Assembly: GCF_963921235.1 (NCBI RefSeq)
Contig: NC_086097.1
Span: 87,856,001 to 87,920,000 of the forward strand
Reading direction: 5' to 3'
Source: Mobula hypostoma
Lineage: Eukaryota
Length of the DNA stretch: 64,000 nt
The notes below the pieces were generated by a model, which did not search any database, was not told the origin of the DNA, and saw nothing but the letters and a program-made list of their open reading frames with translations. The position numbers and the translations under genes were made by a program. Each line of letters starts with the position of its first letter. Within the stretch, counting starts at the first letter, position 1. Below, in pieces: positions 1 through 64,000 of the stretch.

Positions 1-72
1 AATATGTTGCTTCAAATCTTTACATAACATGATTTTGTCTAGTTCTGAATCTTGATGAGATGGATTTAGGTT

Positions 73-9328: not shown

Positions 9329-9974
9329 GTTTGTCATTTTCTTTTTTTCGGGCGCAATGTAGCAAAATGTCAAGTTTAAAATAATAATTTTGTAGAAGCT
9401 GTGTTTAGTTAAAAGTTCAATAATGTAATTAAATTCTAAAAATGCATAATTATCTAAGACAAAACTTGTATTCTTGTCTGTACCTCAAATGTGGGGGAAA
9501 ACACTGAGCAATGAAAAAGAAATTTAAATGATTTCTATTAGGTTTAATGTTTTTTCTGGAAACCTTGCTATGTGGGAAGCATATATTGTCTGGAGATGCT
9601 CTGTCTCAGATTCATCAATGTGAAGCTGGGCTTAAAGGGTTACTTTTCGTGTGTGTACAGATGCATAGACTGATTTTGGTTTCCCTTTCAAAAGTTTTAA
9701 GTAAACTTGGGACTATTGTACCAAGATTGGTATATGGAGTTATGGTACAGGTCGTTCAGCTGTTTGATATGTCTCAGTTGATAGCATTGTGCATTCAAGT
9801 CACAGAGTCTTAAACACAAAAGTCTAGGCTTCAGTGTAATGTTGAATTGGATTCCCATCTTTTGGGTCAGGAACTGTACTGAAGCTTAATCTTCCCTCTC
9901 AAATGGAAATAATGGAAGATATCATGCTATGTTGAAGAAGAGATTTCCCTGGTATTCTGTTCAAGATTTATCCA

Positions 9975-17465: not shown

Positions 17466-17750
17466 CTGCTCCCTGGATAATATAGTTTGTTGAAATTTTA
17501 AAGAAGGTTCAAAGGTTAATTTTATTTCAAAGTATGCATGTACAATACTACTTTGATATTCTTTGTCTTCAGATAGCCATGAAATATAGACAAACCATGG
17601 CTGTTGTTGAAAATAAATTAATTATGGCATTGATTTCAAAAACTGTCTTTCTAACTGTTCTGTAGTTGAATATATCAATGCAACTTACAGAAGCACTTCA
17701 GATGCCCAGTGCAAATGTCAGTGACATGCAGAAAATAATTTCTACATAAG

Positions 17751-18837: not shown

Positions 18838-18850
18838 AATTTCTACATAA

Positions 18851-32752: not shown

Positions 32753-34339
32753 CAGTGCATATAAAAGGTATTCAGCCCCCTTGGTAGTTTATATGTTTTG
32801 TTGTTTTACAACATTGAATCACAATGGATTTAATTGGTTGTAACACTGACGGGCAGAAAAAGACTCCTTCGTGTCAAAGTGAAAACAGATCTCTACGAAG
32901 TGATCTAAATGAACTCCAAATATAGAACACAAAATAATTGATTGCAGACGTATTCACCCTCTTTAATATGACACACCAGATCTTTACTGGTGCAGCCAAA
33001 TGGTTTTGGGAGTCACATAATTAGTTAAATAGAGATCTGTTTTTGGAGACATGTCTGCAGTCAAGGTGTTTCGATTGCATTAAAAATATGCCTGTATCAG
33101 GAAGGTACATCTGCGGTGAGTCAGTATCCTGGCAAAAACTACACAGTGAAGACAAAAGAACACTCCAAGCAAAGGTTATTGAATAGCACATCAGGAGAAG
33201 GATACAAGAAAATTTCCAAGTCACTGACTATCCCTTGAAGTACAGTTAAGTCAATCACCAAGAGATGGAAGGCATTTGGTACAGATGTAAATCTGCCTAG
33301 ACCAGGCCGTTCTCAAAAACTCTGTGACCGTGCAAGTAGGGGACTAGTGGGGCAGGCCATCAAGAAACCTATGACAACTGTGGAGGACTTACAAGCTTCA
33401 GTGGTTGAGATCGGGGAGATGGCACATACAACAGCTGTTGCCCAAGTGCTTCCCCAGTTGCAGCTTTATGGGAGGATGGCAAAAGGAAAGCCACTGTCAG
33501 GGGAAAAAAAAAACTCACATGAAATCTCAGCTAAAGTTTGCCAGAAGGCATGAAGAAAACTGCTGGAAGAAGGTTCTGTGGCCTGATGAAACCAAAATTG
33601 AGCTTTTTGACCATCAGACTAAATGGTAGGTTTGGCATAAAACAAACACAGCACGTCATCAGAAACGCACCATCCCTACTGTGAAGCATGGTAGTGGCTG
33701 CAACATGCTGTGGGGATGCTTCACTGCAGCAGGACCTGGAAGGCTTGTGAAGGTAGAGCGTAAAATGACTGCAGCAAAATACAAGGAAATCCTGGAGGGA
33801 AATCTGCAAGAGAACTGCAACTTTGAAGATTTCCAGCAAGACAGTGACCCAAGCATAAAGCCAAAGCTACACAGAAATGGCTTAAAAACAATGAAGTTAA
33901 AGTCCTGGAGTGGCCATGTCAGAGTTCAGACCTCAATCCTATTGAAGGTTTGTGACTGGCTTGAAAATGGTTCTACACCCACAATCCCCATGCAATCTGA
34001 CAGAGCTTGAGCAGTTTTATAAAGAAAAATGGGGAAAATTGCAGTGTCCAGATGTGCAAAGTCGATAGAGGCCTATCCACATAGACTCAAGACTGTAATT
34101 GCTATGAAAAGTACATCTACTAAATACTGACTTGAAGGAGTAAGTATGCAATCAATTATTTTGTGTTTAATAATTGTAATCAATTTAGACTAATTTGTAG
34201 AAGTGTGTTTTCACTTTGACACAAGAGTCTTTTCTCTTGATCAGTGTCAAAAAGCCAAAATAAGTCCTATGTGATTCAATGTTATAAAGCAATAAACATG
34301 AAGACTTCCAAGGAGGGTGAATCCTTTTTACAGGCACTG
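32753..34339 (+). mobile_element. Tc1-like DNA transposon, degenerate, long TIRs
   Basis: TA|cagtgcatataaaaggtattca at left and tgaatcctttttacaggcactg at right. WKKVLWPDETKIELF, KHGSG-NMLWGCF, FQQDSDP. Same family as 15023-16638. Confidence 0.92.
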
Positions 34340-35100
34340 TGTTTTTTGACTGGGTATTATTCAATTGTTCTATATTAAATTTTCTGCAATTATTACATAA
34401 CTGGTTATTTTAATATGTTTATTATGGTGTTCATAACCAAACAAAGCACGTGTCCCCTAGTTCTAGTCCCTCTTCGCTTTAATCATTATTAAAGCTATAG
34501 CTGGTCTCAAATTTCTCAGATTCAAGCACTGTTTTTGGAAAACAATAAAAAATTTTCAACAATTCCTTATTTGTCACCCACTGCCAAGGGAAAGGCAGAC
34601 TGCAGGGACAAAAGAATGTAGGCTACTGTGACTCAGATGATGCAGTTGCAGAATGAATGGAAATTGGAATGCTTGTTTTTTTAAATGTTTACTTCTGCAC
34701 ATCATAGCCAACACTTTCCAAGCCAAACTGTATGCATCTGTATGTAAAGCACCCATTCATTTGTCAGCCAGCCTGTTTAATTGTTTAAAAAAATACAAAA
34801 AGTACCAGAAGTACTCTGCAAGCATATTGACTTTGGGAGAGAGAAAAAGAATAACATTTTGATTATTGGTGCTGAGGGATGAATCATTTATTTTACTTGT
34901 GTACAGGCACACAAAAGAAGGGAAAGGACGGAAGCAAATAATCAAATGAAAGTCACAGCAGGGTAGATTGTGGTGACAGAGATCAAGCATCAAGATGTTC
35001 TAGACTTTTGTGCCTCCTTCTTTCTTCCACGCAGAACTAAAGAACAGATTGGTGGTTAGATTCCAGGTCAAGTCAGTGAACCAAATGGGCAGGTGTGCCC

Positions 35101-36296
35101 ATAGAGATCCAGTGGATGTGGTGTACCTTGACTTTCAGAAGGCATTTGATAAGGTACCACATAGGAGATTGGTGGGTAAAATCAGAGCTCATGGCATTGG
35201 GGGGAGGTTATTGACATGGATAGAAAACTGGTTAGCAGATAGAAAGCAAAGGGTGGAAGTGAATGGGTCTTTCTCGGAATGGCAGGTGGTGACTAGTGGG
35301 GTGCCACAGGGCTCAGTATTGGGACCACAGCTGTTTACGATTTACGTCAATGATTTAGAGGAAGGCATTGTGAATAACATCAGCAAGTTTGCTGATGATA
35401 CTAAGCTGGGTGGCAGTGTGACATGTGATGAGGATGTTAGGAGAATTCAAGGTGACTTAGATAGGCTGGGTGAGTGGGCAGAAACTTGGCAGATGGCGTT
35501 TAATGTGAATAAGTGTGAGCAAGAACAGGAAGGCAGATTATTATGTGAACGGTGTGGAGTTAGGTAAGGGTGAAATACAAAGAGATCTAGGAGTACTTGT
35601 TCATCAGTCTCTGAAGGTGAATGAGCAAGTGCAGCAGGCAGTGAAGAAGGCTAATGGAATGTTGGCCTTTATTACAAAGGAACTTGAGTACAAGAGCAAG
35701 GAAATCCTTTTGCACTTGTACAGGGCCCTGGTGAGACCACACCTGGAGTATTGTGTGCAGTTTTGGTCTCCAGGGTTAAGGAAGGACATCCTGGCTGTGG
35801 AGGAGGTGCAGCGTAGGTTCACTAGGTTAATTCCTGGGGTGTCCGGACTGTCTTACGCAGAGAGGGTAGAGAGACTGGGCTTGTACACGCTGGGATTAAG
35901 GAGATTGAGGGGGGATCTGATTGAGACATATAAGATTATTAAGGGATTGGACAAGATAGAGGCAGGAAATATGTTCCAGATGCTGGGAGAGTCCAGTACC
36001 AGAGGGCATGGTTTAAGAATAAGGAGTAGGTCATTTAGGACAGAGTTGAGGAGAAACTTCTTCTCCCAGAGAGTTGTGGAGGTGTGGAACGTGCTGCCTC
36101 AGAAGGCAGTGGAGGCCAATTCTCTGGATGCTTTCAAGAAGGAGCTAGATAGGTATCTTATGGATAGGGGAATCAAGGGTTATGGGGACAAGGCAGGAAC
36201 CGGGTATTGTTAGTAGATGATCAGCCATGATCTCAGAATGGTGGTGCAGGCTCGAAGGGCCGAATGGTCTACTTCTGCACCTATTGTCTATTGTCT
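35101..36296 (+). mobile_element. CR1 LINE (HER1-like), 5'-truncated, young
   Basis: VDVVYLDFQKAFDKVPH, SGVPQGSVLGP, KFADDTK, RPHLEYCVQFWSP. One frameshifting deletion near 35520, tail ctattgtctattgtct. Confidence 0.95.
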
Positions 36297-38989: not shown

Positions 38990-41643
38990 TGTGGTCGGGC
39001 AAGACGACGGGAGGTGGTGTCTGCCTACTGATCAACACTGGGTGATGCTCAGACACAGTGGCACTGACAAGCTCCTGCAGCCCGGACCTGGAACACCTAT
39101 CGGTGAAGTGTCGTCCCTACTATCTGCCACGGGAATTCACCTACTGACAGCGTCATATTGACATAGGTCTACATTCCACCCCCCCCCCCCTTAACCAGGC
39201 TCTGAACATACTGTATGCCAACATCAGTGAACTTGAGACCAGGGATCCAGAGGCTTTGCTCATTACAGCCGGGGACTTTAACCAGGCCAACCTCAGAAAG
39301 GCGCTGCCAAAGTTATACCAACATGTCTCCTGCCCCACTAGAGGCCCGAATATACTTGACCACTGCTACACAGCAGTCAAGGATGCCTACCGTTCCGTCC
39401 CATGACCTCGCTTCGGAAAATCGGACCATCAGGCCATACTCCTCCTCCCGGCTTACAAACAGAAACTGAAGCAGGAGGTCACGGTGTCAAAAGTAGTGTC
39501 GCGTTGGACGGAGGAAACGGATGAGGTCCTCCGTGACTGCTTTGAATCAGTGGACTGGTTAGTATTCAAGGACTCGGCAGCTAACCTCGATGAGTATGCC
39601 TCAGCTGTCACGGACTTTATTTGGAAATGCACGGAAGATTGTGTGTCTTGCAAGATGATCCAGATATTCCCTAACTGGAAACCTTGGATGAATTATGAGG
39701 TCAACTCCCTTTTAAAGGCTAGAGCTGTGGCTTTTAGGTCCGGGGATACCAGTCGCAACACAGAATTCAGGCGTGAACTCCGGAAAGCCATTAAGGGTGC
39801 CAAGAGGCAATATCGAGCCAAGTTGGAAGCCCAGGCTAACCAAAGGGATGCCAGTAGACTATGGCAGGGTCTAAATGAAATCACTGGGCGCAAAGAAAAG
39901 GCTGGGAATATCAATAACTGTGGCGCTTCTCTTCCTGATGAACTTAAGATTTGAACAGAAGTGGAGTGTCCCGCTCCCTCCGGATGAACCGGACCTGGTG
40001 GCATTGAGATTCATCGTCACCGAGGAGGATGTTAGAAGAGCCTTCCTGAAGATAAATCCAAGGAAGGCGACGGGCCCAGATGGCGGCCCAGACGGGTTCT
40101 CCGGGCCTGTGCAAGCGAGCTAGCTGGAGTGTTTGCTGACATCTTCAACTGCTCCTTGCTTCAGTCTAAGATCCCCTCGTGCTTTCAGAAGGCAACGATA
40201 ATCCCAGTGCCAAAGAAGAGCAAGGTGGCATGTCTGAATGACTATCGACCTGTGGCTCTGACATCAATTGCTATGAAGTGCTTTGAGAGATTGGTTATGG
40301 CACACACCAACCACAGCCTACCGGTCAACCTCGACGCTTTGCAATTCGCCTACCGGAGCAACAGGTCAATGGCAGATACCATCTCTCTGGCCCTGCGTTC
40401 CTCCTTAGAACACCTGGAGAATAAAGACGCATACGTAAGGCTCCTTTTCATTGACTACAGCTCTGCCTTTAATACCATCATTCCAAATAAACTGATTACT
40501 AAGCTCTGGAACCTGGGCCTTGGCACTCAGATCTGCAGCTGGATCTTCAACTTCCTCACAGACAGGACCCAGGCTGTAAAAATAGGGGACAAGCTCTCCT
40601 CTACAATCACTCTGAGCACCGGTGCCCCACAAGGCTGTGTACTTAGCCCCCTGCTGTACTCACTGTATGCCCATGATTGTGTAGCCAAGTTTCCATCAAA
40701 CTCAATATATAAGTTTGCTGATGACACAACGACTGTAGGCCATATCTTGGGTAATGATGAGTTTGAGTACAGAGAGGAAATTAAGAACCTGGAGGCATGG
40801 TGCGAAGACATTAACCTATCCCTCAACGTCAGCAAGATGAAGGAATTGGTTGTTGACTTCAGAAGGAGTAGCGGACCGCATGACCCAATTTACATCGGTG
40901 GTGCGCAAGTGGAACAGGTCAAAAGCTTTAAGTTCCTCGGAGTGAATATCACAAATGACCTGACTTGGTCCAACCAAGCAGAGTTCACTGCCAAGAAGGC
41001 CCACCAGCGCCTTTACTTCCTGAGAAAACTAAAGAAATTTGGCCTGTCCCCTAAAACCCTCACTAATTTTTCTAGATGCACTGTAGAAAGCATTCTTCTA
41101 GGGTGCATCACAACCTGGTATGGAAGTTGTCTTGTCCAAGACCAAAAGAAGCTGCAGAAGATTGTGAACACGGCGCAGCACATAACACAAACCAATCTTC
41201 TGTCCTTGGACTCACTTTACACCGCACGCTGTCGGAGCAGTGCCAGGATAATCAAGGACATGACCCACCCAGCCAACACACCTTTCATCCCTCTTCCCTC
41301 TGGGAGAAGGCTCAGGAGCTTGAAGACTCGTACGGCCAGATTTGGGAACAGCTTCTTTCCAACTGTGATAAGACTGCTGAACGGATCCTGACCCGGATCT
41401 GGGCCGTACCCTCCAAATATCCGGACCTGCCTCTCGGTTTTTTTGCACTACCCTACTTCCCATTTTTCTATTTTCTATTTATGATTTATAATTTAAATTT
41501 TTAATATTTACTAATTTTAACTTTTTAATATTTATAATATTTAATATTTGTAATCCAGGGAGTGTGAAGTGCAGAATCAAATATCGCTGTGATGATTGTA
41601 CGTTCTAGTACCAATTGTTTGGCGACAATAAAGTATAAAGTAT
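38990..41643 (+). mobile_element. Rex1/Babar LINE, longer copy: APE endonuclease remnant plus nearly intact RT (420-aa ORF 40129-41391)
   Basis: APE motifs AGDFNQ, ILDHCY and FGKSDH. RT motifs [26 protein letters not shown] and KFADDTT. Tail aataaagtataaagtat. Confidence 0.95.
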
Positions 41644-43864: not shown

Positions 43865-44660
43865 ACTCACAGAACATAGGATAGTTCAGCTAAGGAACAG
43901 GCCCTTTGCCCAACCATGTCTCTGCTGATTATGTACCTATCTAAACTAGTATCATCTGCCCGATATCGCTCTGTTTCCAGCCTGTTCACATATCTGTTTA
44001 AATGTCTCCTAAACTTTACTGTTATATCTGCATCTACCATCTCCCATAGCAAAGCCCTTCAGGGACCTACCACTTACCCTGTGTAATAAAAAACAAAACG
44101 CCTCATAAATCTCCTTTGACCTTTCCTCCCCCCACCTTAATCCTATGCCCTCTAGTATTTGATAACTACAGCCAGGGAAAAAGCCTCCAACCATTTATCC
44201 TGTCTATGCATCTCAGAATCAAAATCAGGTTTATTACAATAATATTACAGGTTCATTATAATAAATTTATTCACTCATTCTAAGTCACACGTCAGCCTTC
44301 TACACTCCACTCCATGCAATGTACTGGTGAACCTTTTTTAAAGCCTCTCCTCATCCTTCCAAAAACGCAGTGACCAGAAATGCCCACACACTCCTCTAAA
44401 TGTGGCCAAACCTAAGCTGCGATATGACTTCCTAGCTTTTCTACCCAGTGCCTGGACCAATGAAGTCATGCATGTTGTACACCTTCTTTACCACTCTATC
44501 CACTTGTGATGCCTCTGAAGATCCCTCATTAATGCTTCCAAGGCATTGACTATATACTGTACTTCCCTCTTACATTTGATCCTCAAAAATGAACACCTCA
44601 TAGTTCTCTGCATTTTTCACCCAGATTTTCAACAGATCTGTACCTGCTCTATCCTTTGAC
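43865..44660 (-). mobile_element. Old CR1 LINE 3' fragment
   Basis: agaacatagga...ggaacaggccc tail, atgccctctagt (TRGH), gaccagaaatgc. Confidence 0.75.
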
Positions 44661-44687
44661 AGTGAAACAAGATGGTTTATTTTTCAT

Positions 44688-46084
44688 TTTTAACTTTGCC
44701 TCCAACTTTCACTCTGCCCTCAAGTTTACCTGGTCCATTTCCAACACCTCCCTCCCCTTTCTAGATCTTTCTGTCTCTGTCTCTGGAGACAGCTTATCCA
44801 CTGATGTTTACTATAAGCCTACTGACTCTCACAGCTATCTGGACTATTCCTCTTCTCACCCTGTCTCTTGCAAAAACGCCATCCCCTTCTCGCAATTCCT
44901 CCGTCTCCGCCGCATCTGCTCTCAGGATGTGGCTTTTCATTCTAGGACAAGGGAGATGTCTTCCTTTTTTAAAGAAAGGGGCTTCCCTTCCTCCACGATC
45001 AACTCCGCTCTTAAACGCATCTCCCCCATTTCACGTACATCTGCTCTCACTCCATCCTCCCACCACCCCACTAGGAATAGGGTTCCCCTGGTCCTCACCT
45101 ACCACCCCACCAGCCTCCGGGTCCAACATATTATTCTCCGTAACTTCCGCCACCTCCAACGGGATCCCACCACTAAGCACATCTTTCCCTCCGCCCCCCT
45201 GTGTATTCCGCAGGGATCGCTCCCTACGCAACTCCCTTGTCCATTCATCCCCCCCCATCCCTCCCCACTGATCTCCCTCCTGGCACTTATCCGTCTAAGC
45301 GGAACAAGTGCTACACATGCCCCTACACTTCCTCCCTTACCACCATTCAGGGCCCCAAACAGTCCTTCCAGGTGAGGCAACACTTCACCTGTGAGTCGAC
45401 TGGGGTGATATACTGCGTCCGGTGCTCCCGATGTGGCCTTTTATATATTGGCAAGACCCGACGCAGACTGGAGACCGCTTTGCTGAACATCTACGCTCTG
45501 TCCGCCAGAGAAAGCAGGATCTCCCAGTGGCCACATATTTTAATTCCACATCCCATTCCCATTCTGACATGTCTATCCACGGCCTCCTCTACTGTAAAGA
45601 TGAAGCCACACTCAGGTTGGAGGAACAACACCTTATATTCCGTCTGGGTAGCCTCCAACCTGATGGCATGAACATCGACTTCCCTAACTTCCGCTAAGGC
45701 CCCACCTCCCCCTCGTACCCCATCTGTTACTTATTTTTATGCACACATTCTTTCTCTCACTCTCCTTTTTCTCCCTCTGTCCCTCTGAATATACCTCTTG
45801 CCCATCCTCTGGGGCCCCCCCTTGTCTTTCTTTCCGGAGCTCCTCTCCCATGATCCTCTCGTATCCCCTTTTGCCTATCACCTGTCCAGCTCTTGGCTCT
45901 ATCCCTCCCCCTCCTGTCTTCTCCTATTATTTTGGATCTCCCCCTCCCCCTCCAACTTTCAAATCCCTTACTTACTCTTCCTTCAGTTAGTCCTGATGAA
46001 GGGTCTCGGCCTGAAACGTCGACTGCACCTCTTCCTACAGATGCTGCCTGGCCTGCTGCGTTCACCAGCAACTTTGATGTGTGT
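44688..46084 (+). mobile_element. Penelope-like element (Neptune-like): RT C-terminus, Cys linker, GIY-YIG, pLTR
   Basis: LPFLDL..TDVYYKPTDSHSYLDYSSSHP (PLE RT) and VIYCVRCSRCGLLYIGKT. 15-bp direct repeat tggtttatttttcat at 44673-87 and 46085-99. Confidence 0.93.
45989..46024 (+). ncRNA. Minimal type I hammerhead ribozyme motif in PLE pLTR
   Basis: agtc-CTGATGA-agggtctcggcct-GAAA-CGTC-gact. Predicted cleavage after GUC at 46020. Confidence 0.78.
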
Positions 46085-49757: not shown

Positions 49758-51404
49758 GTAAACAAGTTAAAACTTCTTATGTGCCAGGTTTATGTCTGTG
49801 CCAGCATAATAGGAGTGATCTCTCCTCCTCACCCCCCATGCCTCCATCTTCAGCATTCTTATTAAAGACTTGTTGTGCAGAACAAACTGTGAAGGTTTAT
49901 AGATGCTTCCAACTCTTAATACACAGAGAATTATTGAAACCCTTGCAGTGATTTTCGAGGTAACAGAGTTCGATTTGACATGTTGACGTTTGATGAAACA
50001 GCCTCACGTTCAGCTAGTTAAACAGCTTCTTTGCAGCTCCTGAAATTGAATCTTGGGCTCAGTATACCTCAATCTGTTTTTAAAAAATGGATGTATTTTT
50101 ATTCTTGGTTGTTTGTACTCATTACATTTTTGAGTTACTACTGGAGCTCAGGTTCTGCCACATTCTTTGACGTGACATTATATTGTCTTGACAAAGAAGG
50201 CTGAGTGGGGGAATGCCCAAGTTTAAAAAAGATCCTAATTTGCATTCATGGGGGTGAGTTTCCTTTCATAAAAAAGGAAGGGAAGAGGAAGCAAAGCCAA
50301 GGGAATGAATTCCAGAAAGCATATTTTCTCAAGTACTTTCCTCATGGGCAGTGCATAGGCAGTAGGAAAATGGCAAACTCAAATGATTTGAGAATGTGGG
50401 CCAGTTCATACAACTGGTAGATTGAAATGCATGAAGTGCTCAAAGGTTTATTTTAGAAGTTATCATTTTAAAACATTGCTTACAAAGTTCACAGAAATTC
50501 AATATACAAAAAGTCAAAGGAAGAGAAAAACAGTAGAATATACAGGCTCTCAAGGCAAAAACCTTCAGGGTACCAGGAAAGAAAAGTGAAGTGATTTAGG
50601 GAAAGAGGACTCTTCACTGGGTTAAATACATTCAAATTAAATGTTATTGTCTTCACATGTAGCCTCACGTTCCTTTTTCCATCCCGCCCCAATAAACTGC
50701 ATGACATGAAAAAAGCTGTATTGCTAAAACTTCTTATCCACCTGGGAAGCACAAAATGTTAAAGCAAAGTGCTTGAGAAATCAAATGAAGGATTGATCTT
50801 TTACTACCTGGCGAAGGAGCAGCGATGAACCAGACATTTCTGTAAGGAAAATTGCTTGAGGAATATTTGTTTATGGCAATAACTTTGAATTATTGTCTTT
50901 ACAGTCCAGGGTTGCCTACAAAGAGAAGGGAAGAGAAGACCATCTTGAAACTATTTGAGTTCAATGCAAAACACAGAGCATTCCATGATTTTTACCTTGT
51001 ATAGACACTGCATTGCTGAAACATTGTGTTTTATGTGAATCAGTTATCTCTCCCATCCACTTCCCTCCCATCTCACGTACACTAGTACAGGAACATTGCA
51101 TCATGTCCCAGCATTTATGGTCCCTCCTGACATTTGGAGTACTGTCACTATTACTCGATAGCATCATGATACACTGAACTTTAAAAATGGAGGTTATTAT
51201 GATTTAGTGTCTCTTAGTTAAAACATTCAGGTTGATAGACAGGTATGAGATTCTTAACTGACCTGAAGTCTTGTTTTTAAGAATTCAGTTACAGATCATC
51301 TTTTAGATGATATGTTTTGAACTGTGCATTATGTTAAATAAACTGTAGTTATTAAATAGTTTAGAGTCTTGACCAATGACACTATTTCCTTCTCCACTTT
51401 CCAG

Positions 51405-51880
51405 TCTGAAGCTCAATATTCAAGCCATTCAAGCAGCAACACACTTTCCAGCAATGCTTCAAGCGCTCACAGTGATGAGAAATGGTATGACACAGGGGAC
51501 CGGACGGAATCTGAACTAAATGGTTATAACTACATTCAGGGTACATCTGCAGACAGTGGCATTGATACAACCTCTTACGGGCCATGCCATGGCAGCATGC
51601 TGTCCGCAGGAACCCCAGCTGCTCCAACAAATTCTTTGAGGTCTGCACCAACAAAAGAGAAAACGGCTTCTCCTTGGCCTGGTCCAAATGACAATGGCAT
51701 GCACTGCAGCAGATTAGGAGATCGAGGCTCCCACAGTTATGAGAGGAGGGGCGCACTCTCACCGGCACTAAGCACAGAAAGTCAAAGCAGATGTTACGGA
51801 GGGTTGGTCCATAGTGTTTCAAGTGCATCAGCTCAAGAAAGCAGAGCGTATAGCCTCAGTGATACCTCCTCTCAGTCCAG
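51405..51880 (+). CDS. SIPA1L1: SIPA1L1 internal coding exon, 476 nt, phase 0/2
   Basis: ttccag|TCT acceptor, AG|gtaatt donor. Encodes [29 protein letters not shown]...[15 protein letters not shown], including the DSGIDT phosphodegron known for SPAR/SIPA1L proteins. Confidence 0.95.
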
Positions 51881-51997
51881 GTAATTAATTTGTGATTATG
51901 TGTCATTTGTGTTTCTTCTGAGTTTGTCCCAGTTTCCCACCTACACTAATAGTCTTGGTGACAGCCCGTCAAGGCTGGCATTCTCCTCTCCCTTCAG

Positions 51998-52039
51998 CCA
52001 CAAGAAACACTTACAAAAAAAAGGTGCATTTGGCAGAAG
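51998..52039 (+). CDS. Candidate SIPA1L1 cassette exon, 42 nt, phase 2/2
   Basis: cactaat branch-like motif (~51945), ttctcctctcccttcag| acceptor, AAG|gtaaag donor. In frame and stop-free: (S)HKKHLQKKGAFGR(S). Confidence 0.5.
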
Positions 52040-53202
52040 GTAAAGTGCCTGTTCTAACCTTTTCCAAAGTGTGAGCATGTGTCTAAGTTTTCATGGATAG
52101 ATCTATGAGAGAGTAATCGAGGATAACCACTTCTGCAATGTCATGGCAGTAATGTAGCTGGAAATGAGTAGGTAAATCTTCTTCCAATATTGGCTTCCCT
52201 TTTGGTTGTATTTCCATCACTCCCTTCGCCTGGTAATGCATGAGAATCACCACACATCGTAACAACAGATACTGTGTTAGAAATACGTAATTGTTCAGAG
52301 TACGAATCTTAATGTGTATATAATTTACATGAAAATCATTATATATTTTGTGAAAGCATGTTGTGTTCAGCATGTCAGTATAATTGATATGTGTTGAGAA
52401 TGTGTAATTTGGCTCATTTGCCTGAAGTCATTCATTTTGCCACTTAATATGTTACAATTTGATTAATAACTTGCAGGTTAATTCTGGTTGGAACAGTTCA
52501 CAAAGGAAGATTATGTACATATTTTGTGCTGATTGATTGCCATTTACCTGTCACCCTTTTGTCTTTACCAGTCTAAAGTGGTTCCGGTCCTTTATTTGAC
52601 AGGTTTATATCATCATGGCTCTATTCCTCAAAAAAAATCTCCCTTTCTTTGCATGCCTTAATTCACATTGTCTCAAACTCTGGAACTTTTTCTTTAAACT
52701 CATATCCCTCTTCAATTCCTGCTTTTGATGACTCAATGCTCTTTTCCCCTTGGCTAGAATTATTAGTCATCCTGGTGTGGTAAAAATGTCCATTATATTC
52801 TTATATCCGAGGTCTTTGATGAACAAACAGAATCCTTATTAATGACATACAACGTTTGACCACATTCACTCAAGGTGTTAATATGCAGCTGAGGATAACA
52901 AATCCCACCTCTTTAAAAGGTGAAGACCACTCCTTGCCTGCTGTCAACAGTTGTCATCCATGTTTGCACACTGCAAATTTTTCCACTGCAAATGAGCAAA
53001 GTGAGCAATCTGTTCTTAGACAATTCAGATCACTGAGTAATTTAATAACATCAATAATTTATTTTAAGAGGGGAAAATATGCAGACTAAAAGTGATATTT
53101 TGACTAAAACAGTGGATCCATGTAATGGCCAACTTGTGAGATGGAAGTTCTTCATTCTCAAAATGCATACTCCTTGTAATGGGGAATTTATTTATTTTCC
53201 AG

Positions 53203-53433
53203 TACTCTGAGTTCAAGGCATTCCATTAGTCCAGTGGTCTTTACACACAGTAGGAGTTCACCCCACGATGAGACTCAGCCAACTCCTTCACCCCAGGCGT
53301 CACACCATTCATCCTCCACATCTGGGCCCAGAACATTTTATCCTCGCCAAGGAGCCACCAGCAAATATTTAATAGGCTGGAAAAAGCCAGAAGGGACTAC
53401 CATTAACTCTGTTGGATTTGTGGATTCAAGAAA
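53203..53433 (+). CDS. SIPA1L1: SIPA1L1 internal coding exon, 231 nt, phase 2/2
   Basis: ttttccag|T acceptor, AA|gtaaga donor. Encodes [14 protein letters not shown]...[37 protein letters not shown], a motif diagnostic of SIPA1L1. Confidence 0.95.
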
Positions 53434-55033
53434 GTAAGATGCTAAGTTTTTCTCTGATTCTCTGAAGTGTTCTGTAATCCATTCTCTGTCAGCAGTTTAA
53501 ATACTTATGTATGGACCACAAATCAAGCAATTCTTGAATCTCTGTGCCCACACTTATTTCAGCAGAGTTTGCTGGGTCATATATTGCCCCTCCGAAGCAG
53601 AGAGAGTGGTTCAGGTGAGGGTGTCTGGGCATGACGTGTGTGTACTGAGACAAGTACAAATCACTTGCTACCCATGTACGTGAAGGTACAACTGTGACCG
53701 AAGATGTGTATCAATTACTGCTATAATCAAACTAAATAACTCAGTCAACAATTCAGAAAACTGCTCCATATAGGTGTGTAATTGAAAGATTGATAGCAAA
53801 TAGCACCAACAGAATGTTAGCAAGGGAAGTTGTTTTCTGTTTGAAATCTGATTTAGGCTTCATGATAATGAGAAACAGGAATGCTGAAAAGGGAATCAGA
53901 TCAATTTCTTAGAGGGTATATGACATATATAAATGCAGAATTGGGATGTGTTTTAGGAAAAATAGGCTCATCCATACAAGAAAATCTGTAATTCCCCCTA
54001 TTCATCTATGCATTGTTACTTGCATATGAGTACAACATTATGAAGAACTGATCAGAGGTTTTGTTGAAGTGCAAATATTGATTTGTTTTTCAGTGAAGAA
54101 TTTGTGTTTTCAGGTATAATTAAACTTTTTTTTAGTGCCCTGCTTTTCTTTCACATTAAAGCTTAAAGTAATATCTGAATTTTGCTTTTAGCCCTGGTGC
54201 CTTCAGATATCTATGACAAAAGGAAGATAGTTGTGAAGCTGTACTTGGGGTGCAAGATAATGTTAGAGGAGTTGCTCTTACCAGGGCATCTTTAGTTCAG
54301 TACTGATAACTAACATGAGGGTAGGTGAGAAGAAGAATAGCAAATTCCTTTATAATAGAGTACTGTAAAGATCATTTAAGAACCCATATGTTAAATAGTC
54401 AGCTAAGTCTGCTCTGATATTACAAAGAAAACTGATAGCAAGTGCAGCTTAAACTTGTTACAAAAACAGGATCGATCTTCAGTCACGTTGCCATTATTGG
54501 CTGAATCATACCGTCAAACTATAAGCTGACATCCAATAGATGCTTGCAAATAGATTTCCAGTGGCATAAGTATTTGAATTCCTTTATATGTGTCAAGTGC
54601 ACGAGAAAGGACAAAGATACTTGTTTCTTGACTATTCCTTTCTATTTAGATTTCCTGCTGTGTTGTCACTGTTAGTGACCCTGCGACAAAAGAGGAAATT
54701 AGCACAGGTTGATGGGAACTGTCATGCGGGCTCCCTGCACCTACAGTGTTTTTGATAGTGACAATAGAAGACAGTATTGTAAAACCCATGTAATAGACAG
54801 CCCAGACAATTTTCATGTTTGCAGTTGACCTGTTGACTGCTGTATATTTTATTGAGTTTTGAGAAAATCTGCCACATGTTATTCCTTATGTAATGTACCT
54901 CATTCCAGTTAATGAATTCCATCTTTATCACAATGCATGCATGGCTACAGTAGGTGACGATCATGACTCTATTTAATTGTTAAATACAGAAACTTGTACA
55001 TAAATTATTTATATTTACTCTTTTTCTCAAAAG

Positions 55034-55072
55034 GAAATATCCTGCAGCCCTTAATGTCTGGTGGAATGTCAG
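55034..55072 (+). CDS. Candidate SIPA1L1 cassette microexon, 39 nt, phase 2/2
   Basis: tttactctttttctcaaaag| acceptor, CAG|gtagtt donor. In frame and stop-free: (K)KYPAALNVWWNV. Flanked by several (T)GCATG motifs. Confidence 0.5.
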
Positions 55073-55890
55073 GTAGTTGAGTGTTCACGACATACATTCA
55101 AAGAACAAGCTTGGTTTGTTGTTTGAGCCACGGTTGCTTTTCATTAGCCACGCATGTGATTTTGTCATGTCAATTGCAGTATATATACGTAATCGAGCAT
55201 GGGCTTTGTTGTGTAAATTGTGAATGGCATGAAGGCATTTGACGTACACTGAATTGTAACTAGGGTACTAGGGCAAAAGAAAATGAAAATCTGAAAAGTT
55301 GCAGCTGCTCAAAATCTGAAGTAAAAGCAGAAGGTGCTGGAGACATGCAGCAGGTCAGACAGCATCTATAGAAAAATTCAGATTGAAGACCTGCTGCTTC
55401 CAGCATTTTCTGTTTTCCATGGGGAAGTGTCAGTTCATTAGCAGCACTGCGATTGCAAGTGAAACGCCAATCTGCTTTGTAAATCAATCGTCCTTTTTTC
55501 ACTAAGCACAGTGGGAAAATTTCAACAAGGACCGCAACTGGCTAGGGTCACCAGCAGCCTGGGGTCAAGGGTAATTTGATGCTGACTTCTCTGGTAACCC
55601 TCAATTCCCAAGAGAGGAGACTGAGGGAGAATAATGGCCTATGAGTTTCAACGCAGAGTGACACTTTTTTTTCCAGTGTTGTGTGTAGAAGTCAATGTGT
55701 TCCCCAGCCCCTACGCCCTCAAGATTTGAATGCAGTTATGATTGTTTACGGATTGAATCATGCCACTCTGGAAATTCAAACAGGCATTTCCAATCACAAC
55801 TTGCGTATGTGAACATTTTATAGTCTTGCCTGACAAGTACAACCTTGTGATTCTAAAACACTCGTCAGTGGGTACTTTCAAACCAACAGG

Positions 55891-56280
55891 GTCAGAATCA
55901 AAATCAGGTTTAATATCACTGGCACATGTCGTGAAATTCATTAATTTAATGGCATCAGTACAATGCAATACATGATAAATATAGAAACTTAAATGAATTA
56001 CAGTAAGTATATATGTATGTTAAATAGTTAAATTTAAAATAGTCGTGCAGAAGCAAAAGTAATTTTTAAAAAGTGAGGTAGTGTTCATAGGTTCAGTGTT
56101 CATTTAGATATCAGATGGCACAGGGTAAGAAGCTTTTCCTGAATCTCTGAGTATGTGCTTTCATGCTTCTGTACCTCCTTCCTGACAATAACAATGAGAA
56201 GAGGGCATGTCCTGGGTGATGGGGGGAGTGGGGAGGGTTGGTTCTTGATAATAGATGCCTTTCTGAAGCACTGCTTGATG
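55891..56280 (-). mobile_element. Rex1/Babar-like LINE 3' fragment
   Basis: tcagaatcaaaatcaggtttaatatcactggc tail, homologous to 25788-26170. Confidence 0.8.
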
Positions 56281-56659
56281 TCTTGGTGTTGATTGTTCTG
56301 CTGAAATCACAACGGTATGATAAGAATCTATTGACAGCATCTCTCCACCTATCTCAACCATAACCTCTAATATACCAATCCAATAGCAGTTGACATCCTG
56401 CAACTCAGGAAATGTGCTTTCAAATATTCCACTCATTGATGAAGAAATATTTGGTTTTATCAGATTGATTTCATGCCTTCAGCAACCAGAGTTACATGAC
56501 CTCATTTTTTGGGATCTGGGCATACTGGCCAAGCCATCTCTAGTCACCATTGATCTTGGTGTGCCTTTTCAGATTAATAGGTAACTATTTTGTGTGGGTC
56601 TCTGCCTCGAATATCCCCATGGGCAGAATATTCCAGATTTTGTGATTCAAAGATTGTGA

Positions 56660-56787
56660 CTAATATTGTACCACTCCTTCACCATTCCCCATCCCCTTCT
56701 CTCTCTCTATCTCTCTATCTACCTCTATCTCTATCTCTCTATCTTCCTCTCTCTCTATCTCTCTCCGTGTCTCTCTCTCTCTCTCTG

Positions 56788-56818
<31 letters not shown>

Positions 56819-56819
56819 A

Positions 56820-56892
<73 letters not shown>

Positions 56893-57275
56893 ATTTCTCT
56901 TTATCTCTCTCTTTATCTCCTTGCCTGCCCATAGCCTCCATCTGGTGCTCCTCTCCACCCGCCCCCCCTTCCATATCTGGTGCTCCTCTCCACCCGCCCC
57001 CCCTTCCATGACCTTCTGTCCTCTCCTATTAGATTCCCCCTTTTCCAATCAAGTATCTCTTTCACCAATCTACTTCCCAGCTCTTTACTTCACCCCCCTC
57101 TCAGTTTCACCTATCACCTTGTGTTTCTCCCTCCCCTCCCCCCACTTTTTAATTCTACTCCTCGTCTTTTTTTCGCCAGTCCAGCTGAAAGTTCTCGGCC
57201 TGAAACGTTAACTGTTCTCTTTTCCGTAGATGCTGCCAGGGCTGCTGAGTTCCTCCAGCATTTTGTGTGTGTCAC
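56660..57275 (+). mobile_element. PLE-derived 3' region/pLTR containing the microsatellite, a ~30-bp tandem duplication (56939-57004) and a decayed hammerhead
   Basis: ctcggcctgaaacgttaactg...gatgctgcc...gagttcctccagcattttgtgtgtg terminus. Confidence 0.7.
56697..56915 (+). repeat. Imperfect (CT)n microsatellite with ctat interruptions
   Basis: Read directly from the sequence. Confidence 0.97.
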
Positions 57276-58849
57276 CACAAATATCTGCTGAGTTCCTTGC
57301 TGTTCATTACAAAAATTTACGATTTGGATGTAAATCTTGTAGGTATGATTAGTGAATAAGCAGAAGATGCGAAAATTGGAGCTGGTGGTGATGGTGAGAA
57401 GGATAATCTACAGAGTGATGTCGATAACTGGCAAATTGGGCAGAGCAAAAGCAGATAGAGTTTAACTCTGAAAAGCATGAGCTAATTTTGGGAGGTCAAA
57501 TTAGGGAAGGGCATGCACCATAAATGCAAGGGCCTTGGGAAGCACTGAAGGGTAAAAGGACATAGGTGTACTATGTGCTGTATAGTCCATAACAATCTGA
57601 TTTCCAGCATACTTTCCCTCTCTGTCAATGCTCGTTAACTTACTGAGTAAATTTTCAGATTTCCATTGTTTGTTTTTAGAGTGAACGTAATTTGTCACCT
57701 GATCCAGGTTTTGACCCGCATTAGTTGTGCAGTGTGATGCATTATGCATATCCAAAATAGGACAACATTACCATCAGTATAATGCTCAAATTAGCACAAA
57801 AAAACGTTCATTGTTATTCAGATGGATTACCACAGGTTTTAAGTACATGTTATCAACAAGCTGAAGCATGATGAACATCAGTAGATGGCAGGGGAATAGT
57901 TCAATTATGTACTGAAGCTTAGTCTTGAGACTATGTTGCTCTGTCACAGAGAACTGCAGGAACTAATGGTAGTCTGGATAAAATGGCACTCAGTACTTTG
58001 ATACCCTGCAGGCTAACTTGGAAATGGAATGGTGTTAGCTGAAGCAGGAGAAACATTTGCTGCAGAAATTATGTTCTGATATCCACATGGAAATCGAGTG
58101 CTTTGTGAATTGAGCTGTGCAGCTATAGAATACCCTCAAGAAAAAAAGACTACTCAGTCAGTTCATCATTCAAAGGATGCAATTTAATAAAACTGTTCAT
58201 CGCAATCAGCATAGCCTTTAGCTTTAGTAATCTTAAAGAGATGCAAGTTTTTAACCTGTACTGCAGATAGACTTTTAAACAAATTTGCAAAAAGCTCAAG
58301 GAATGTGAATGGTCTTTAAACACAAATAATGTATCCTCATCATTTATTTGGTTTTGACTTGTTTACTTGGAATGCCGCCCTAATTTAGACTCAAATTACC
58401 TAAGTACCCCTAAGAATGATTAAGCAGTACTGAGGTCCAAAACCTTGTCTCAAATTTTGATTTTAGTTTTCCTTTTATAAGTTTTGAGGGGAGAGGCACT
58501 GCTTATTTCCTGCTGTCTCTCCCATTAAGTTTCCCATTTTATATATAGTGAAATACTGTAAATAGGACAAGCATGAATGTTACAAGGCATTAGTGCTGCC
58601 ATTCACGTGAAGATTGATATAGACAACCTCATAAGATTTTAGGCATTTGTTCCATGTGTTGCTGTTGCTCAAACATTTTCAAAGTGTGGGTATTCTTTAA
58701 AATTATGTAGGTGTATGCTTTCACTATAGAGCTACTTTAGCTAATTATAAACTATACGTTAAAAATCAAAACCCCTAGAAATGCAAAGAAAAGGCATTTC
58801 AGGATGTATATTGTATACATTTCTCTGACATTAAATTGGACCTTTGAAC

Positions 58850-59005
58850 CTTTGATTCTGCACATTCTGGAGATCTAGAGCAGCAGACATAAAATGCTGG
58901 AATAATTTAGTAAGTCCATTTATGGAGGGAAATAAACAGTCGACATTTTGGGCTGAGACCCTTTGCCAGGATTCAGTCTTGATGAAGGGTCTCAGCTTGA
59001 ACTGC
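58850..59005. mobile_element. Short PLE-derived element with two back-to-back decayed hammerhead motifs
   Basis: gggctgagacccttt...cagga followed by its inverse agtcttgatgaagggtctcagctt. Confidence 0.65.
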
Positions 59006-60431
59006 TTTTGTGTTTTGCTCTGCTTGAATGGAGAAAGGAGCATCCCTTTTAGCAAGTATGTGATCGGACTGGTCAATATCCATTCACAAAATAGTTATCG
59101 TCAACTGTCTGTAAGCCACGTGGTTTGGTTTCTGATTGTGTAAGTTTGTAAGTGTGCTCACTGGCTTTCAAGGCTGTCTAAGTTGAAATTTATCATCCTC
59201 ACATACATTTTCTTTGAAACGTCCCCTGGGTGTGCAAAAAAGAAAAAAAAACATGATTTTTAAAAGATTAGAAAATTGTAGAATTGGACGGAATTGAGGG
59301 CTTAGTGCTTGAAAAATGCTAAGCTGAAGGTTATAAATCTTTAAAATTTTCTGAACTCCAAGTTGTGGATGCTTAGTCATTGAGTATTTTCAAGGTTGAT
59401 TTTTGTTTCTAAGGGCAATGGAGGGTAACAGCATCAAACAGAATAGTGAATGAGAAATGGCTCCTTAGAATGAGAAACTGGTGAGATCAGAAACCATGGA
59501 ATGTCGAAATGTTGAATCCAAGTAGAGAAATTAGTAAAACCAAGAAGAGAATTCCAAATGAAATTGATAAGTAAGTGAAAATGTACTGTTTTCTTTTATC
59601 CAAGAAGTGTGGAGATTTTGTGTTACATGAGATTAAGGTGAGAGCAGACAAGGTGCACAACAGGGAGGCGATACTGAAGAACAGATTGAGTGAAGCAGTG
59701 ACAGGGCTGAATGAGTTAAAATGAGTAGAGTGGATTGGACTAGGCTTGTATTCCCCGTGGTATAGGAGATCAAAGGCTGAGATGAGAGTTTTTTTAAGAT
59801 ATTAAAGGATTTCAGAAAGGGGCATTGAGTGTTGCTTTTCTCTGGTGGTTGGGGAATGGAGAACATGGGGTCTTAACCTTTAAAATTATTGAGCCATTCC
59901 AGAGTGACATCAGGAAACACTTATTTATGCACATGGGATTGGGAATCTGGAATAAAAACAATGTTGAAATGCTCATCTGGTCAGGAAGTATCTGGATTTT
60001 TGTTCAAAGCATGGTTGCTTAAAGATAAACAATGAGTTTTAAAGATCTGCATATCCAGGAAGTATGAAATAAATCAATAGTATCATAGATGCTAACAAAT
60101 CTTTTGTTGAAAGGGATTCGGGCACCTTATTCTGCCTATGAGCCCATAAAATATAAAAATAACTGGATACTAGTTTCTCCTGTATCTGTAAATGGTTTAA
60201 CAATTCCTACATGAGCAGCATGATGGCCAGCTTTCCTAATTGGTGGAGTCATAATGTCATAGACATACATTTCACAAGTAAAAGCCTTTCAGCACTAACC
60301 AGTAACCACTCATTTACACTATCCCTACATTCATCCTTCCCTGAATTTGTCCTCGCCAATAACTGGACTCAGAACGTGCGGACATTTACTGCTCAATCAT
60401 ACTTTATTTTACTTGTGTACAAGGAGAATAA

Positions 60432-60840
60432 ACTCAGGTTGGAGGAGCAACACCTCATATACAGTCTAGGTAGTCTCCAGCCCCTTGGTATGAACATAGA
60501 ATTCTCAAACTTCCAGTAATTCCCTCCCCCTCCCTTCCTCTATCCCTATTTCACATCACCTCCCTCATAGTTCCGCCTCCTTCTACTACTTCGCATTGTT
60601 CTCCTGCCAATCACCTCCCTGCTTCCCCTCCCCCACTCCTTTGTCTTTAAAATTACTGTTTTTTTTTCAACTACCAGCATTCTTCAAACCCTCCCCAAAG
60701 TTCTTCCTTCAGTTCTGACGAAGGGTTTTGTCCCGAAACGTCGACTAATCTTTTCAACTGATGCTGACTGACCTGCTGAGTTCCTCCGGCGCATTGTGAA
60801 TGTTCCTTTGACAACAGCATCTGCAGATTATTTAGTGTTT
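60432..60840 (+). mobile_element. Penelope-like element 3' fragment with 10-bp TSD and hammerhead core (60711-60746)
   Basis: LRLEEQHLIYSLGSLQPLGMNIEFSNF, TSD aggagaataa at 60422-31 and 60841-50, and agtt-CTGACGA-agggttttgtccc-GAAA-CGTC-gact. Confidence 0.85.
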
Positions 60841-60939
60841 AGGAGAATAAGTGAATGCTTAAGGTGAAGATCATGAATTCAGTCCATTAACCCTTATCAT
60901 CAATGTTCTTCTGGCCACCTGTTCCCTGGTCCAGTGGCA

Positions 60940-62810
60940 CAGCTGACTTAAAGTGAGAGGCATGTTATCCATGTTGGCTTTTCTTGAAACTTTAAGGCAG
61001 AATATGTGGTCAGCAACACTTGGAATGGAATGGACCTTCCTAGCAAGGCTCCAGTAGGCTCTCACCAGTGCCCAGTTTCCTGGCTGGTTGGTGTGGCACT
61101 CTGCAGCTAGTACGATCTTCTCAGCTTCAGGAACCTGTAGATGGGAACCTTTAATACTTGTGTTAGTGCTCTATGATTCTGCAGCATGCTTCCACTCATA
61201 CTATGGATGTTCATCTATTTGATTAAAAAGAGAGGGACAGCTGACAAGTCCAAAACTATCTCATGTGGAGAGAGGCCTGTTACACTATTCAGAGCACAGT
61301 GCCTTGTCACGAGAACCAGTGGAAGCACCTCTGGCCACTTCCGCTTGGTCATGTCACGCCATGTAGCTAACCTGCATTTCAGGGCCCCTTTCTGCTTTTT
61401 AGCTGCCCCATAAGATTGAGGGTGGTAAGGGCAGGTTAAGTGATGTTTACATTGCAAGTCTTTTGTCAATACCAGTAAAGTGGGCACTGTTATCACTTGA
61501 AATTTTTCTCAGGGACTGCAAACCTAGGAATAAACTCTCATAATTAAAAAAAAACAGGCAACTGTTACAGCATCATTTCTCTATGTTGGACAGTTTTTAC
61601 CCATGGTGTTAGCAAATTTAAGGAAGCTTATGGGGTGTTAGCTTTCTTAAGTCGAGGGATAGAGTTTAAGAGTCACGAGGTAATGATGCAGCTCTATAAA
61701 ACTCTGGTTAGGCCACACTTGGAGTACTGTGTCCAGTTCTGGTCACCTTACTATAGGAAGGATGTGGAAGCATTGGAAAGGGTACAGAGGAGATTTACTA
61801 GGATGCTGTCTGGTTTAGAGAGTATGGATTATGATCAGAGATTAAGGGAGCTAGGGCTTTACTCTTTGGAGAGAAGGAGGATGAGAGGAGACATGATAGA
61901 GGTATACAAGATATGAAGATGAATAGATAGAGTGGATAGCCAGCGCCTCTTCCCCAGGGCACCACTGCTCAATACAAGAGGACATGGCTTTAAGGTAAGG
62001 GGTGGGAAGTTCAAGGGGGATATTAGAGGAAGGTTTTTTAACTCAGAGAGTGGTTGGTGCGTGGAATGCACTGCCAGAGTCAGTGGTGGAGGCAAATACA
62101 CTAGTGAAATTTAAGAGACTACTAGACAGGTATATAGTGGAGTTTAAGGTGGAGGGGCTTATATGGGAGGCAGGATTTGAGGGTTGGCACAACAGTGTGG
62201 GCCGAAGGGTCTGTACTGTGCTGTACTACTATTCTATTCTATTCAAACACAATCACAAGTGCTTAATCAGAATGCATACATTTAGGTAATTGCATACAAT
62301 CCATTTGGAGATGCAAGGGCCCAGCAGTGGCAGATACTGGCAGTGTCTTTCCGGATTATGTCTCTGGCAAATCATACAGTTGCTGCTACTTTTCTCGCTA
62401 TGGTCGAGAATCTCTCACTTTCAATTATACCTATCATCCTTTATAGCCTCACACATAGTAGGCTTGAGTTCATAAAACCTTTTTCATCTACCGATGCATC
62501 ACGCTTTAATTGTATTAGTTCATAAAAGAATTTGGAAAGTGTTGGCAGCCTGATCACACTACGAAGCCATAAAGATCTGCTCTCGCTGTTTTAGCAACAG
62601 AGTCGGCCTGTTTGTTCTCTCTAGTTATCTCATCCTTCCTGTTAGTATGAGCCACATAGTTAATAACAGCAATTGCAGTAGGTAATTAAAAAACAGGGAA
62701 AAGTGTTGGTGATGGTGGAGGTAGTAACTGTTGTCAAAATTGGGTTTGCACTGAGGCACTTTGAGCCCAGCAGCCAAGTAGTCCACAGGCATAAACATAC
62801 CCCTTGCGGA
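60940..62810 (-). mobile_element. Degenerate class I (gamma/epsilon-like) endogenous retrovirus: possible gag zinc knuckle, RNase H end, integrase
   Basis: Minus strand: LPTAIAVINYVAHTNRKDEITRENKQADSVAKTA (RNase H), CMICQRHNP, GPLHLQMDCMQLPKC, FIPRFAVPEKISSDN, CPYHPQSYG, WPEVLPLVL, TGLSPHEI, EGPF-QVLLTTYSALKFQEKPTWI-ASHFK. Confidence 0.85.
61618..62243 (+). mobile_element. CR1 LINE 3' fragment (young) inserted in the ERV integrase
   Basis: LYKTLVRPHLEYCVQFWSP, ERVQRRFTRM, TRGHGFKV, and (attct)n tail. Confidence 0.93.
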
Positions 62811-64000
62811 CATCACTGCATTCTACTCCTTCCATGCCCACAGTCCCATTTTCATGTTTATTGACATGAATCAAAGAACTATAAAAATCATACATTTAGA
62901 ATGACATTATCTAAAATATATCTACGCTGTTCGAAACAAAGATAGCATCAGTCACAAGTGGGTCACATGAGCCATATGTGTAGAAAGCAGGTAATGTTAA
63001 ACCAAAGTCTACAGTGAAATTTTAAGCAGAAATTAATCTGGTAATGATTAACCAAAATTTGGTCGCTGTCAATTTAGTTAAATATAAAACAAAGCTACAA
63101 GTTAAAATGACATTCAAATTGTATAGGACAGCTGTCACAATACTTATAAAGCAATGTACAATATTTCCCAGAGGCTATAGTGGAGCAACCCAGGAAGTGT
63201 TACTCAAGTACTGCCTCCATTCCCCTTAGCTTTAATCCTTTGATGTTGTAATTGTTTTTGGCGATATTGTAAAACACTCACAATTTTGCTTAACTCTCTC
63301 AACTCACACAAGTAACAGTATATGTTTTCCTTTACCTAGGTTGCAACTTACTTACAATAACATGTATTAAGATGGGTGTCCCCTCTTATAACCATATAAC
63401 AATTACAGCACGGAAACAGACCATCTCGGCCCTTCTAGTCCGTGCCAAACTAGAGTGAATCCGGAATACGTTTGAAAATATTTACACGTGTGTTCAACAT
63501 ATTAATTAACATCATTGTCTCCTGTCCAACACTTTATTTTTATGCCAATCTACAATGCGAGGGAAAAATTTTGTTAGAACTTCTACTACAGCAGCTCAGG
63601 GTTCATTTAAATCAACATATCACTCATCCTCTCTGCACCCCTCTGCCTTCTGTCTCCTGTAGTGCTGACATTCTTCAACGAGTACTTGAGGTGTGTGCCT
63701 TGTTGAAACATTGCCTGGGAAGGTGGGGTACAGCATATAGTTCATTCTCAGACTCTGGTGCCAGTAGATTCTTTTTTTAATCACTGAGGTCAACACTGTT
63801 ATACCTTGTCTGTTCTTTCTGTGTCGTTTCTTCATGTAACTTTGATTCACATTCTCAGCTTTTTTACATCTAGATTGAACAAACACAGGCTACCCTACAG
63901 ATTTCTTACGTTTTCCTTTCACGAACAACACATCTGCAACCGCTCAAGTAGTCCATTCCACCCATACAGTACAGTATATTTCTCAACATACTTAATGTTT

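Follow-up and report, generated by a model that had tools for sequence, protein, structure and literature searches.

A decayed class I, probably epsilon-like, endogenous retrovirus remnant in a presumed intron of Mobula hypostoma

Features of the locus

The window analyzed here is the whole stretch of 64,000 nucleotides from contig NC_086097.1 of Mobula hypostoma (positions 87,856,001 to 87,920,000 of the forward strand). Its plus strand carries coding exons at ~8997-9362, ~51360-51880, and 53203-53433, which we take to belong to a SIPA1L1-like (Rap GAP) gene; a Pfam search of these exons returned no meaningful family, and none of six downstream motifs expected of that gene was found in the window. 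Because no later exon was recognized in the window, the remnant described below, which reads on the minus strand, would lie antisense in the intron that follows the exon at 53203-53433. Antisense is the usual orientation of fixed intronic endogenous retroviruses (ERVs). The window also contains open reading frames of decayed LINE-type reverse transcriptases, Penelope-like elements, and Tc1-like transposases (10296-11264, 17675-20229, 35004-36213, 39406-41391, 44593-45671, and 33630-34010), ordinary repeats with putative family names, and, at 56660-57010, a microsatellite rich in CT (period 12 bases), behind which 35 bases are duplicated exactly in tandem (56940-57009). The features that concern the remnant are the following:

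53203..53433, plus strand: final host exon recognized in the window, with a GT donor at its end (sequence reading)
60400..60870, no strand assigned: high-copy host repeats bounding the 3' end of the remnant (depth)
60920..61612, minus strand: integrase core and class I (MLVIN_C-type) C-terminal domain (frameshift-aware profile, 167.7 bits)
61618..62243, plus strand: 5'-truncated end of a CR1-type LINE with a short tandem tail, inside the integrase (depth, loose ends, open reading frame)
62248..62580, minus strand: shortened RNase H-integrase linker, Cys half of the zinc finger, and first catalytic Asp region (profile, 46.0 bits)
62584..62685, minus strand: retroviral-type RNase H C-terminal end (tblastn and profile, 49.4 bits)
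62700..62830, minus strand: junction zone holding a proposed knuckle (knuckle and mid-RNase H profiles at chance level; apparently locus-private)
62830..63334, no strand assigned: repeated block with a divergence like that of the Pol part (38-58 contigs per listed site in run X1, 82-85% identical)
63388..63450, minus strand: another high-copy 3' fragment of LINE type, short and with approximate limits (depth peak in bin 63382-63538, and sequence)
63540..64000, no strand assigned: lower-copy repeated block that runs off the window (6-7 contigs per site at 63836-63942 in X1)

The Pol pieces, the CR1 insert, and the flanks

The Pol remnant is real. The original prediction had read, across frameshifts, an RNase H end, an integrase zinc finger with the first catalytic Asp region, and an integrase core with its C-terminus, and all of these were borne out. 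With a class I Pol profile, the best scores in the window on both strands were obtained by the RNase H end at 62685-62584 (49.4 bits versus an unrelated maximum of 17.9), the integrase N-terminal part at ~62580-62248 (46.0 versus 22.2), and the integrase core (118.5 versus 21.1), while a profile of MLVIN_C-bearing proteins did the same for the integrase C-terminus (54.5 versus 18.3). The frameshift-aware search that had been proposed as a check was conducted with a frameshift-tolerant aligner and a profile built from 13 epsilon-like proteins, each segment being shuffled 25 times; it gave 56.2 bits for 62256-63000 versus a shuffle maximum of 18.1, and 167.7 bits for 60880-61600 versus 17.5. The four pieces are collinear with one Pol and keep its order on the minus strand: RNase H end, integrase N-terminal part, core, and C-terminus.

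The alignment path contains ~9 frameshifts (three in the upstream piece and ~6 in the downstream one), one stop, and several deletions; the ~6 downstream frameshifts and the stop break the integrase core and C-terminus, and the third catalytic position of the core is not acidic. The stretch that separates RNase H from the first catalytic Asp lacks ~50 profile positions; the zinc finger of the integrase keeps its Cys half but apparently not its His half.

A search of one natural frame over 60960-61619 against 1.84 billion proteins identified 162 at E 0.001 or better, of which the best 150 were examined. The top match is a sawshark protein (E 2.7e-15, 39% identity), and proteins of coelacanth, newt, tuna, and frog are also among the best matches. 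In 12 of the best 150 relatives, tblastn found a second match at 62685-62584, collinear and upstream of the integrase match, which falls within the Pfam RNase_H domain of the full-length relatives P0022 and P0031; the remnant C-terminus aligns to the MLVIN_C domain of the best-matching proteins. The Pfam scan covered 30 of the best 150 matches, picked by rank and length, and among the best 15 it assigned MLVIN_C to eight, Ty3/Gypsy-type or repeated-core content to six, and a core only to one. Solved (PDB) integrases match the core piece as well, at a best E of 3e-4, foamy integrases being the best of them. Pfam returned no family for any of 12 read-through frames of the remnant, nor for its broken piece P0004, and none of the 255 candidates from a word-index search with the core piece reached E 0.001.

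The integrase is interrupted by an insert at 61618-62243, as had been claimed; CR1 as its family name is our assumption. Summed read depth over the insert is ~1e6, versus ~10 for single-copy sequence, and loose contig ends at 61618 and 62225, in agreement with the CR1 limits, occur in all four runs. In run X5, a related copy lacks the CR1 and has 61582 joined to 62255, which would make the insertion younger than the element itself. The ends of the CR1 show no target-site duplication. The region also contains an open reading frame (61548-61916), and pieces similar to the insert occur elsewhere in the window.

In the junction zone, the original prediction fared differently. It had placed a decayed CCHC-like knuckle at 62751-62802, which does resemble by eye that of the newt relative P0157. 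A profile of 22 knuckles, from distant references, reached at most 12.0 bits in 62680-62900, when chance sites in the window reach 23.7, and the knuckle claim is therefore not confirmed; nor is the literal reading of gag joined to RNase H, which depends on it, and only the absence of protease and reverse transcriptase (RT) stands. One tblastn alignment (P0032) read the same stretch as mid-RNase H, a reading that likewise stayed at chance level (9.9 bits versus a background of 19.5). Upstream of RNase H, protease and RT profiles reached 15.8 bits at best, inside the shuffle range of 13.4-21.5, in line with the predicted loss of both. An assembly error at the junction that lacks protease and RT can be discounted, since a contig from the same species runs across 62366-62978 without a mismatch, apart from a 13-base gap relative to the window. 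The contigs of organism A (X1 and X9) show 0 substitutions over this interval, and the 13-base gap is either an indel allele or an assembly difference.

Upstream of the Pol pieces, repeated family-like DNA, absent from the original prediction, runs from ~62830 to the end of the window. Its first block, 62830-63334, had no match among reference Gag, Env, protease, and RT proteins; it is possibly a decayed gag, a leader, or a neighboring repeat, and may be part of the same element. Across 62830-64000, relatives 82-85% identical occur in all three DNA-type runs, again with no match to a reference retroviral protein. An LTR reading of 62830-63334, with an AATAAA at 62862, was considered and rejected, as there is no depth step at a plausible start and copies continue past 63538. 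The stretch 63001-63200 is T-rich on the minus strand (40%). In other copies the block at 63540-64000 is linked to that at 62830-63334, the joint 63334-63538 being present in three X5 contigs; between them in the window lies the fragment at 63388-63450, whose assignment to a LINE family is likewise putative. A faint likeness to an epsilon capsid near 63580-63530 was seen by eye and is not significant. A capsid profile reached 15.6 bits upstream versus a background of 25.1 with distant references, and only three epsilon-like Gag proteins were found, too few for a sensitive profile.

On the other side, family-level depth stops by ~60870, and 59457-60241 lies at or below single-copy depth. Six reference Env open reading frames and a TM profile had no match on the flanks; because family DNA stops near ~60870, env is missing from this copy, which says nothing of the family. 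The 24 reference open reading frames compared with the two flanks reached at most 26.3 bits versus shuffle maxima of up to 24.5, and no cyclin or other accessory gene was matched there. As the original prediction had recognized no LTR, so our repeat search of 50000-64000 found neither an LTR pair nor a long direct repeat, and no primer-binding site was recognized; the 3' end is truncated, with no 3' LTR after it, and the 5' end lies beyond the window.

Related copies and other organisms

Contigs from four of the 24 listed runs were compared with the window across 59300-64000. In X1, own-locus contigs have a depth of 9-10, and the depths of all contigs add up to 149-256 across the downstream integrase, 324-757 on the RNase H side, 840-998 at 62911-63381, 88-254 at 63539-64000, and 0-3 at 59457-60241. 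Depth itself is not a copy number; it is because X1 holds 6-58 distinct contigs per listed site, together with five long pieces 82-85% identical, that the remnant is recognized as one copy of a dispersed multi-copy family. Run X9, considered RNA only by guess, shows an own-locus depth of 3-4 in the remnant and in plain intron alike, which is uninformative on expression.

Near-identical copies of the remnant are present elsewhere. Three pieces from organism B differ at 8/431, 3/276, and 9/543 positions (98-99% identical), and a piece from organism C, at single-copy depth, differs at 36/551 (93%); a further organism C contig lies over 62743. These pieces appear to be orthologous to the remnant, with no contig bridging the integration junction in either organism. 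Copies of the family differ by 15-18% among themselves versus 6.5% between organisms A and C, which fits an insertion before the species split. The insertion may be tens of millions of years old or more.

The copies also bear on whether protease and RT were lost at this locus or earlier. Under an alternative that we consider improbable, the remnant would derive from a non-autonomous family already devoid of protease and RT and mobilized in trans, with the upstream block and the RNase H-integrase part joined in many copies. The upstream block and the Pol pieces are indeed alike in divergence and in contig counts, and the lack of any reference protein match for that block would also suit such a family. 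Against it, position 62743 is covered in X1 by the own-locus contig only, with no related copy (X5 and X11 have one contig each), and related contigs end near 62668 and 62828 and then run on in other sequence, although contigs show presence and not absence and this junction evidence comes from part of the contig tables. Since no related copy covers 62743 in X1, the data suggest instead a deletion of protease and RT private to this locus.

Placement among retroviruses and proposed history

Reference viruses were taken from a viral collection, in which WDSV was confirmed by name; the labels Xenopus ERV, WEHV, snakehead, gamma, and foamy are ours, presumed from Pfam content and tree grouping among other features. 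A quick 64-row tree assigns the window row to class I (SH-aLRT 98) and groups it there with proteins of sawshark and elephant shark (86). A more careful tree, limited to 36 of the 64 rows, supports class I to the exclusion of foamy and snakehead (97/96), an epsilon-like clade uniting the window row with WDSV, WEHV, and Xenopus ERV (96/95), and an elephant shark protein as sister to the window row (99/82); the neighbors are epsilon-like elements of sawshark, elephant shark, coelacanth, turtles, and amphibians. AU tests on this tree gave p values of 0.023 against grouping with Gypsy, 0.012 with foamy and snakehead, 0.0095 with snakehead, and 0.006 with gamma. A control tree, restricted to the integrase core and C-terminus and built from a profile-free alignment, recovers class I (84/94), with the window row in a polytomy within it and no shark sister; here the AU p values were 0.19 for Gypsy (not rejected), 0.044 for snakehead, and 0.024 for gamma. 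In all three trees the window row stands outside WDSV and WEHV, which form a 100/100 clade of their own, and its branch is long (1.05-1.17). It is important to note that the frame path of the window row was derived from an epsilon-like profile and leans that way.

Pairwise scores against 29 single references are free of the profile. For the downstream part they are 75-175 bits for epsilon-like references (n=12), 56-67 for gamma (n=5), 50-65 for Ty3/Gypsy (n=7), 40-48 for foamy (n=4), and 33 for snakehead, the lowest of the 29; turtle protein P0184 leads with 175 bits, followed by coelacanth (144) and sawshark (139). The RNase H-integrase piece scores 24-50 bits in 11 of the 12 epsilon-like references, the twelfth being without that region, and 14-21 bits, which is chance level, in all seven Gypsy-type references. 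From the careful tree, the control tree, and the pairwise scores, the remnant has class I affinity, and a class I retroviral origin is well supported by these sequence comparisons; an epsilon-like position within class I is likely, and the data do not establish a lineage confined to cartilaginous fishes. The original prediction of a gamma- or epsilon-like element holds as to class I and can be narrowed to a probably epsilon-like one, grouping with gamma being rejected in both tests. The integrase phylogeny proposed along with it places the row in class I in all free trees, with Gypsy rejected on the longer alignment but not on integrase alone.

That last result is one of the points that speak for a Ty3/Gypsy LTR retrotransposon rather than a retrovirus, together with the absence of a visible env and the six Gypsy-type or repeated-core proteins among the best 15 matches, one of them ranked second. 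Such matches cover the core only, however, and several rank high through repeated integrase copies; the RNase H piece is matched by none of the seven Gypsy-type references, and the C-terminus fits the class I profile. An RNase H directly before the integrase separates retroviruses from most Ty3/Gypsy elements, and a retroviral-type RNase H (Pfam RNase_H) is present directly upstream of the integrase in the remnant. We regard a Gypsy origin as very unlikely. We hold it equally unlikely, as judged against snakehead and foamy references, that the element is snakehead-like, foamy-like, or lokiretrovirus-like and not class I. Snakehead-like ERVs are present in elephant shark (PMC4422223), a hagfish protein occurs among the relatives, foamy integrases lead the PDB matches, and the snakehead Pol also shows a weak MLVIN_C match; set against this are the snakehead and foamy scores and the AU values for snakehead given above, and the report of an epsilon ERV from hagfish (PMC10699275).

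The remnant is, very probably, a dead, neutrally decayed, and internally deleted copy of an epsilon-like class I ERV, antisense in a SIPA1L1-like intron. On this account, an epsilon-like retrovirus (class I, 'clade Mu') would have entered an ancestral germ line and multiplied until it occupied tens of loci or more; one of its copies would have inserted antisense in the SIPA1L1-like intron and become fixed. In the neutral decay that ensued, a seemingly locus-private deletion would have taken away protease and RT together with most of RNase H, env and the 3' LTR would have been lost, and ~9 frameshifts, internal deletions, and CR1-type insertions would have accumulated, leaving a remnant that presumably encodes nothing and has no known function. 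Co-option by the host gene as coding or regulatory sequence, for which the intronic position and the 93-99% identity kept in two other organisms could be cited, is the least credible reading, given the frameshifts, the stop, the internal deletions, the CR1 insert, and a divergence in organism B that is even across pieces (1.1-1.9%), as for neutral DNA.

Elements of this kind are already known from cartilaginous fishes, and the family may be uncatalogued. The original prediction had called the ERVs of these animals sparsely described and the lineage possibly uncharacterized. The first point needs qualification, since epsilon-like ERVs of cartilaginous fishes are already published (PMC4422223, PMC6001957, bioRxiv 10.1101/2021.11.23.469661); the second may hold at the family level, although the shark link (99/82) is lost in the control tree. 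In published work, elephant shark has three CmiERV lineages, two of them epsilon-related, with many short fragments (PMC4422223); clade Mu includes the epsilonretroviruses and infects nearly all jawed vertebrates, and cartilaginous fish ERVs are scattered through the retroviral tree (PMC6001957); ERVs occur in six cartilaginous fishes, three with >500 copies, and form 46 orthologous groups in Chiloscyllium (bioRxiv 10.1101/2021.11.23.469661); 12 chondrichthyan genomes have been screened for ERVs (PMC10699275); and fish genomes carry epsilon-like elements as a major class (PMC4977317). Our literature searches, which covered mainly freely available papers and the main text of preprints, found no ERV survey of rays, and one genome preprint has no mention of 'ERV' or 'retrovir'.

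The remnant shares with the epsilon-like class I ERVs of clade Mu (PMC6001957) and the Pol-LE groups (bioRxiv 10.1101/2021.11.23.469661) an RNase H directly before an MLVIN_C-ended integrase and a tree placement with WDSV, WEHV, Xenopus ERV, and elements of fish, amphibians, turtles, and coelacanth; by contrast, no protease, RT, gag, env, or LTR could be detected in this copy, which hence has no RT-based subgroup. CmiERV lineages II and III of elephant shark are likewise epsilon-related, mostly short fragments, and tens of millions of years old (PMC4422223). The elephant shark ERV protein P0054, which may belong to one of these lineages, is 42% identical to the remnant over 219 columns and is its sister in the 36-row tree but not in the control, whereas the highest pairwise score belongs to the turtle protein P0184. 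Epsilonretrovirus (WDSV, WEHV-1, and WEHV-2) and Xenopus ERV are the best named-virus matches (E 6e-10) and fall in the same broad clade; the epsilonretroviruses, however, are only ~26-30% identical and keep their own clade, and no cyclin or other accessory gene was matched in the remnant. Gammaretrovirus (MLV, FeLV, GALV, REV, and BaEV) shares the class I integrase C-terminus but differs in its lower scores and in the rejected grouping.

By itself the remnant means little; its use is that of a marker, as an insertion common to three organisms could date the epsilon-like lineage by orthology. The family could also help to test co-divergence against host switches of cartilaginous-fish epsilon-like retroviruses, the latter being argued in PMC6001957. 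A tentative and rather doubtful extension is that the family is undescribed, limited to one cartilaginous group, and related to the ERVs of sharks and chimaeras, that it numbers tens of copies and has an insertion common to at least three species, and that the 1.2 kb upstream block is perhaps a gag or accessory region too divergent to be matched by current references; if true, a minimum age could be read directly from the shared insertion, and long co-divergence could be tested. Finally, the epsilon-like ERV Pols of turtle, hagfish, elephant shark, and frog (P0184, P0186, P0054, and P0192) are filed as 'protein NYNRIN-like' and those of newt as 'Gypsy retrotransposon integrase-like', labels that hide ERVs.
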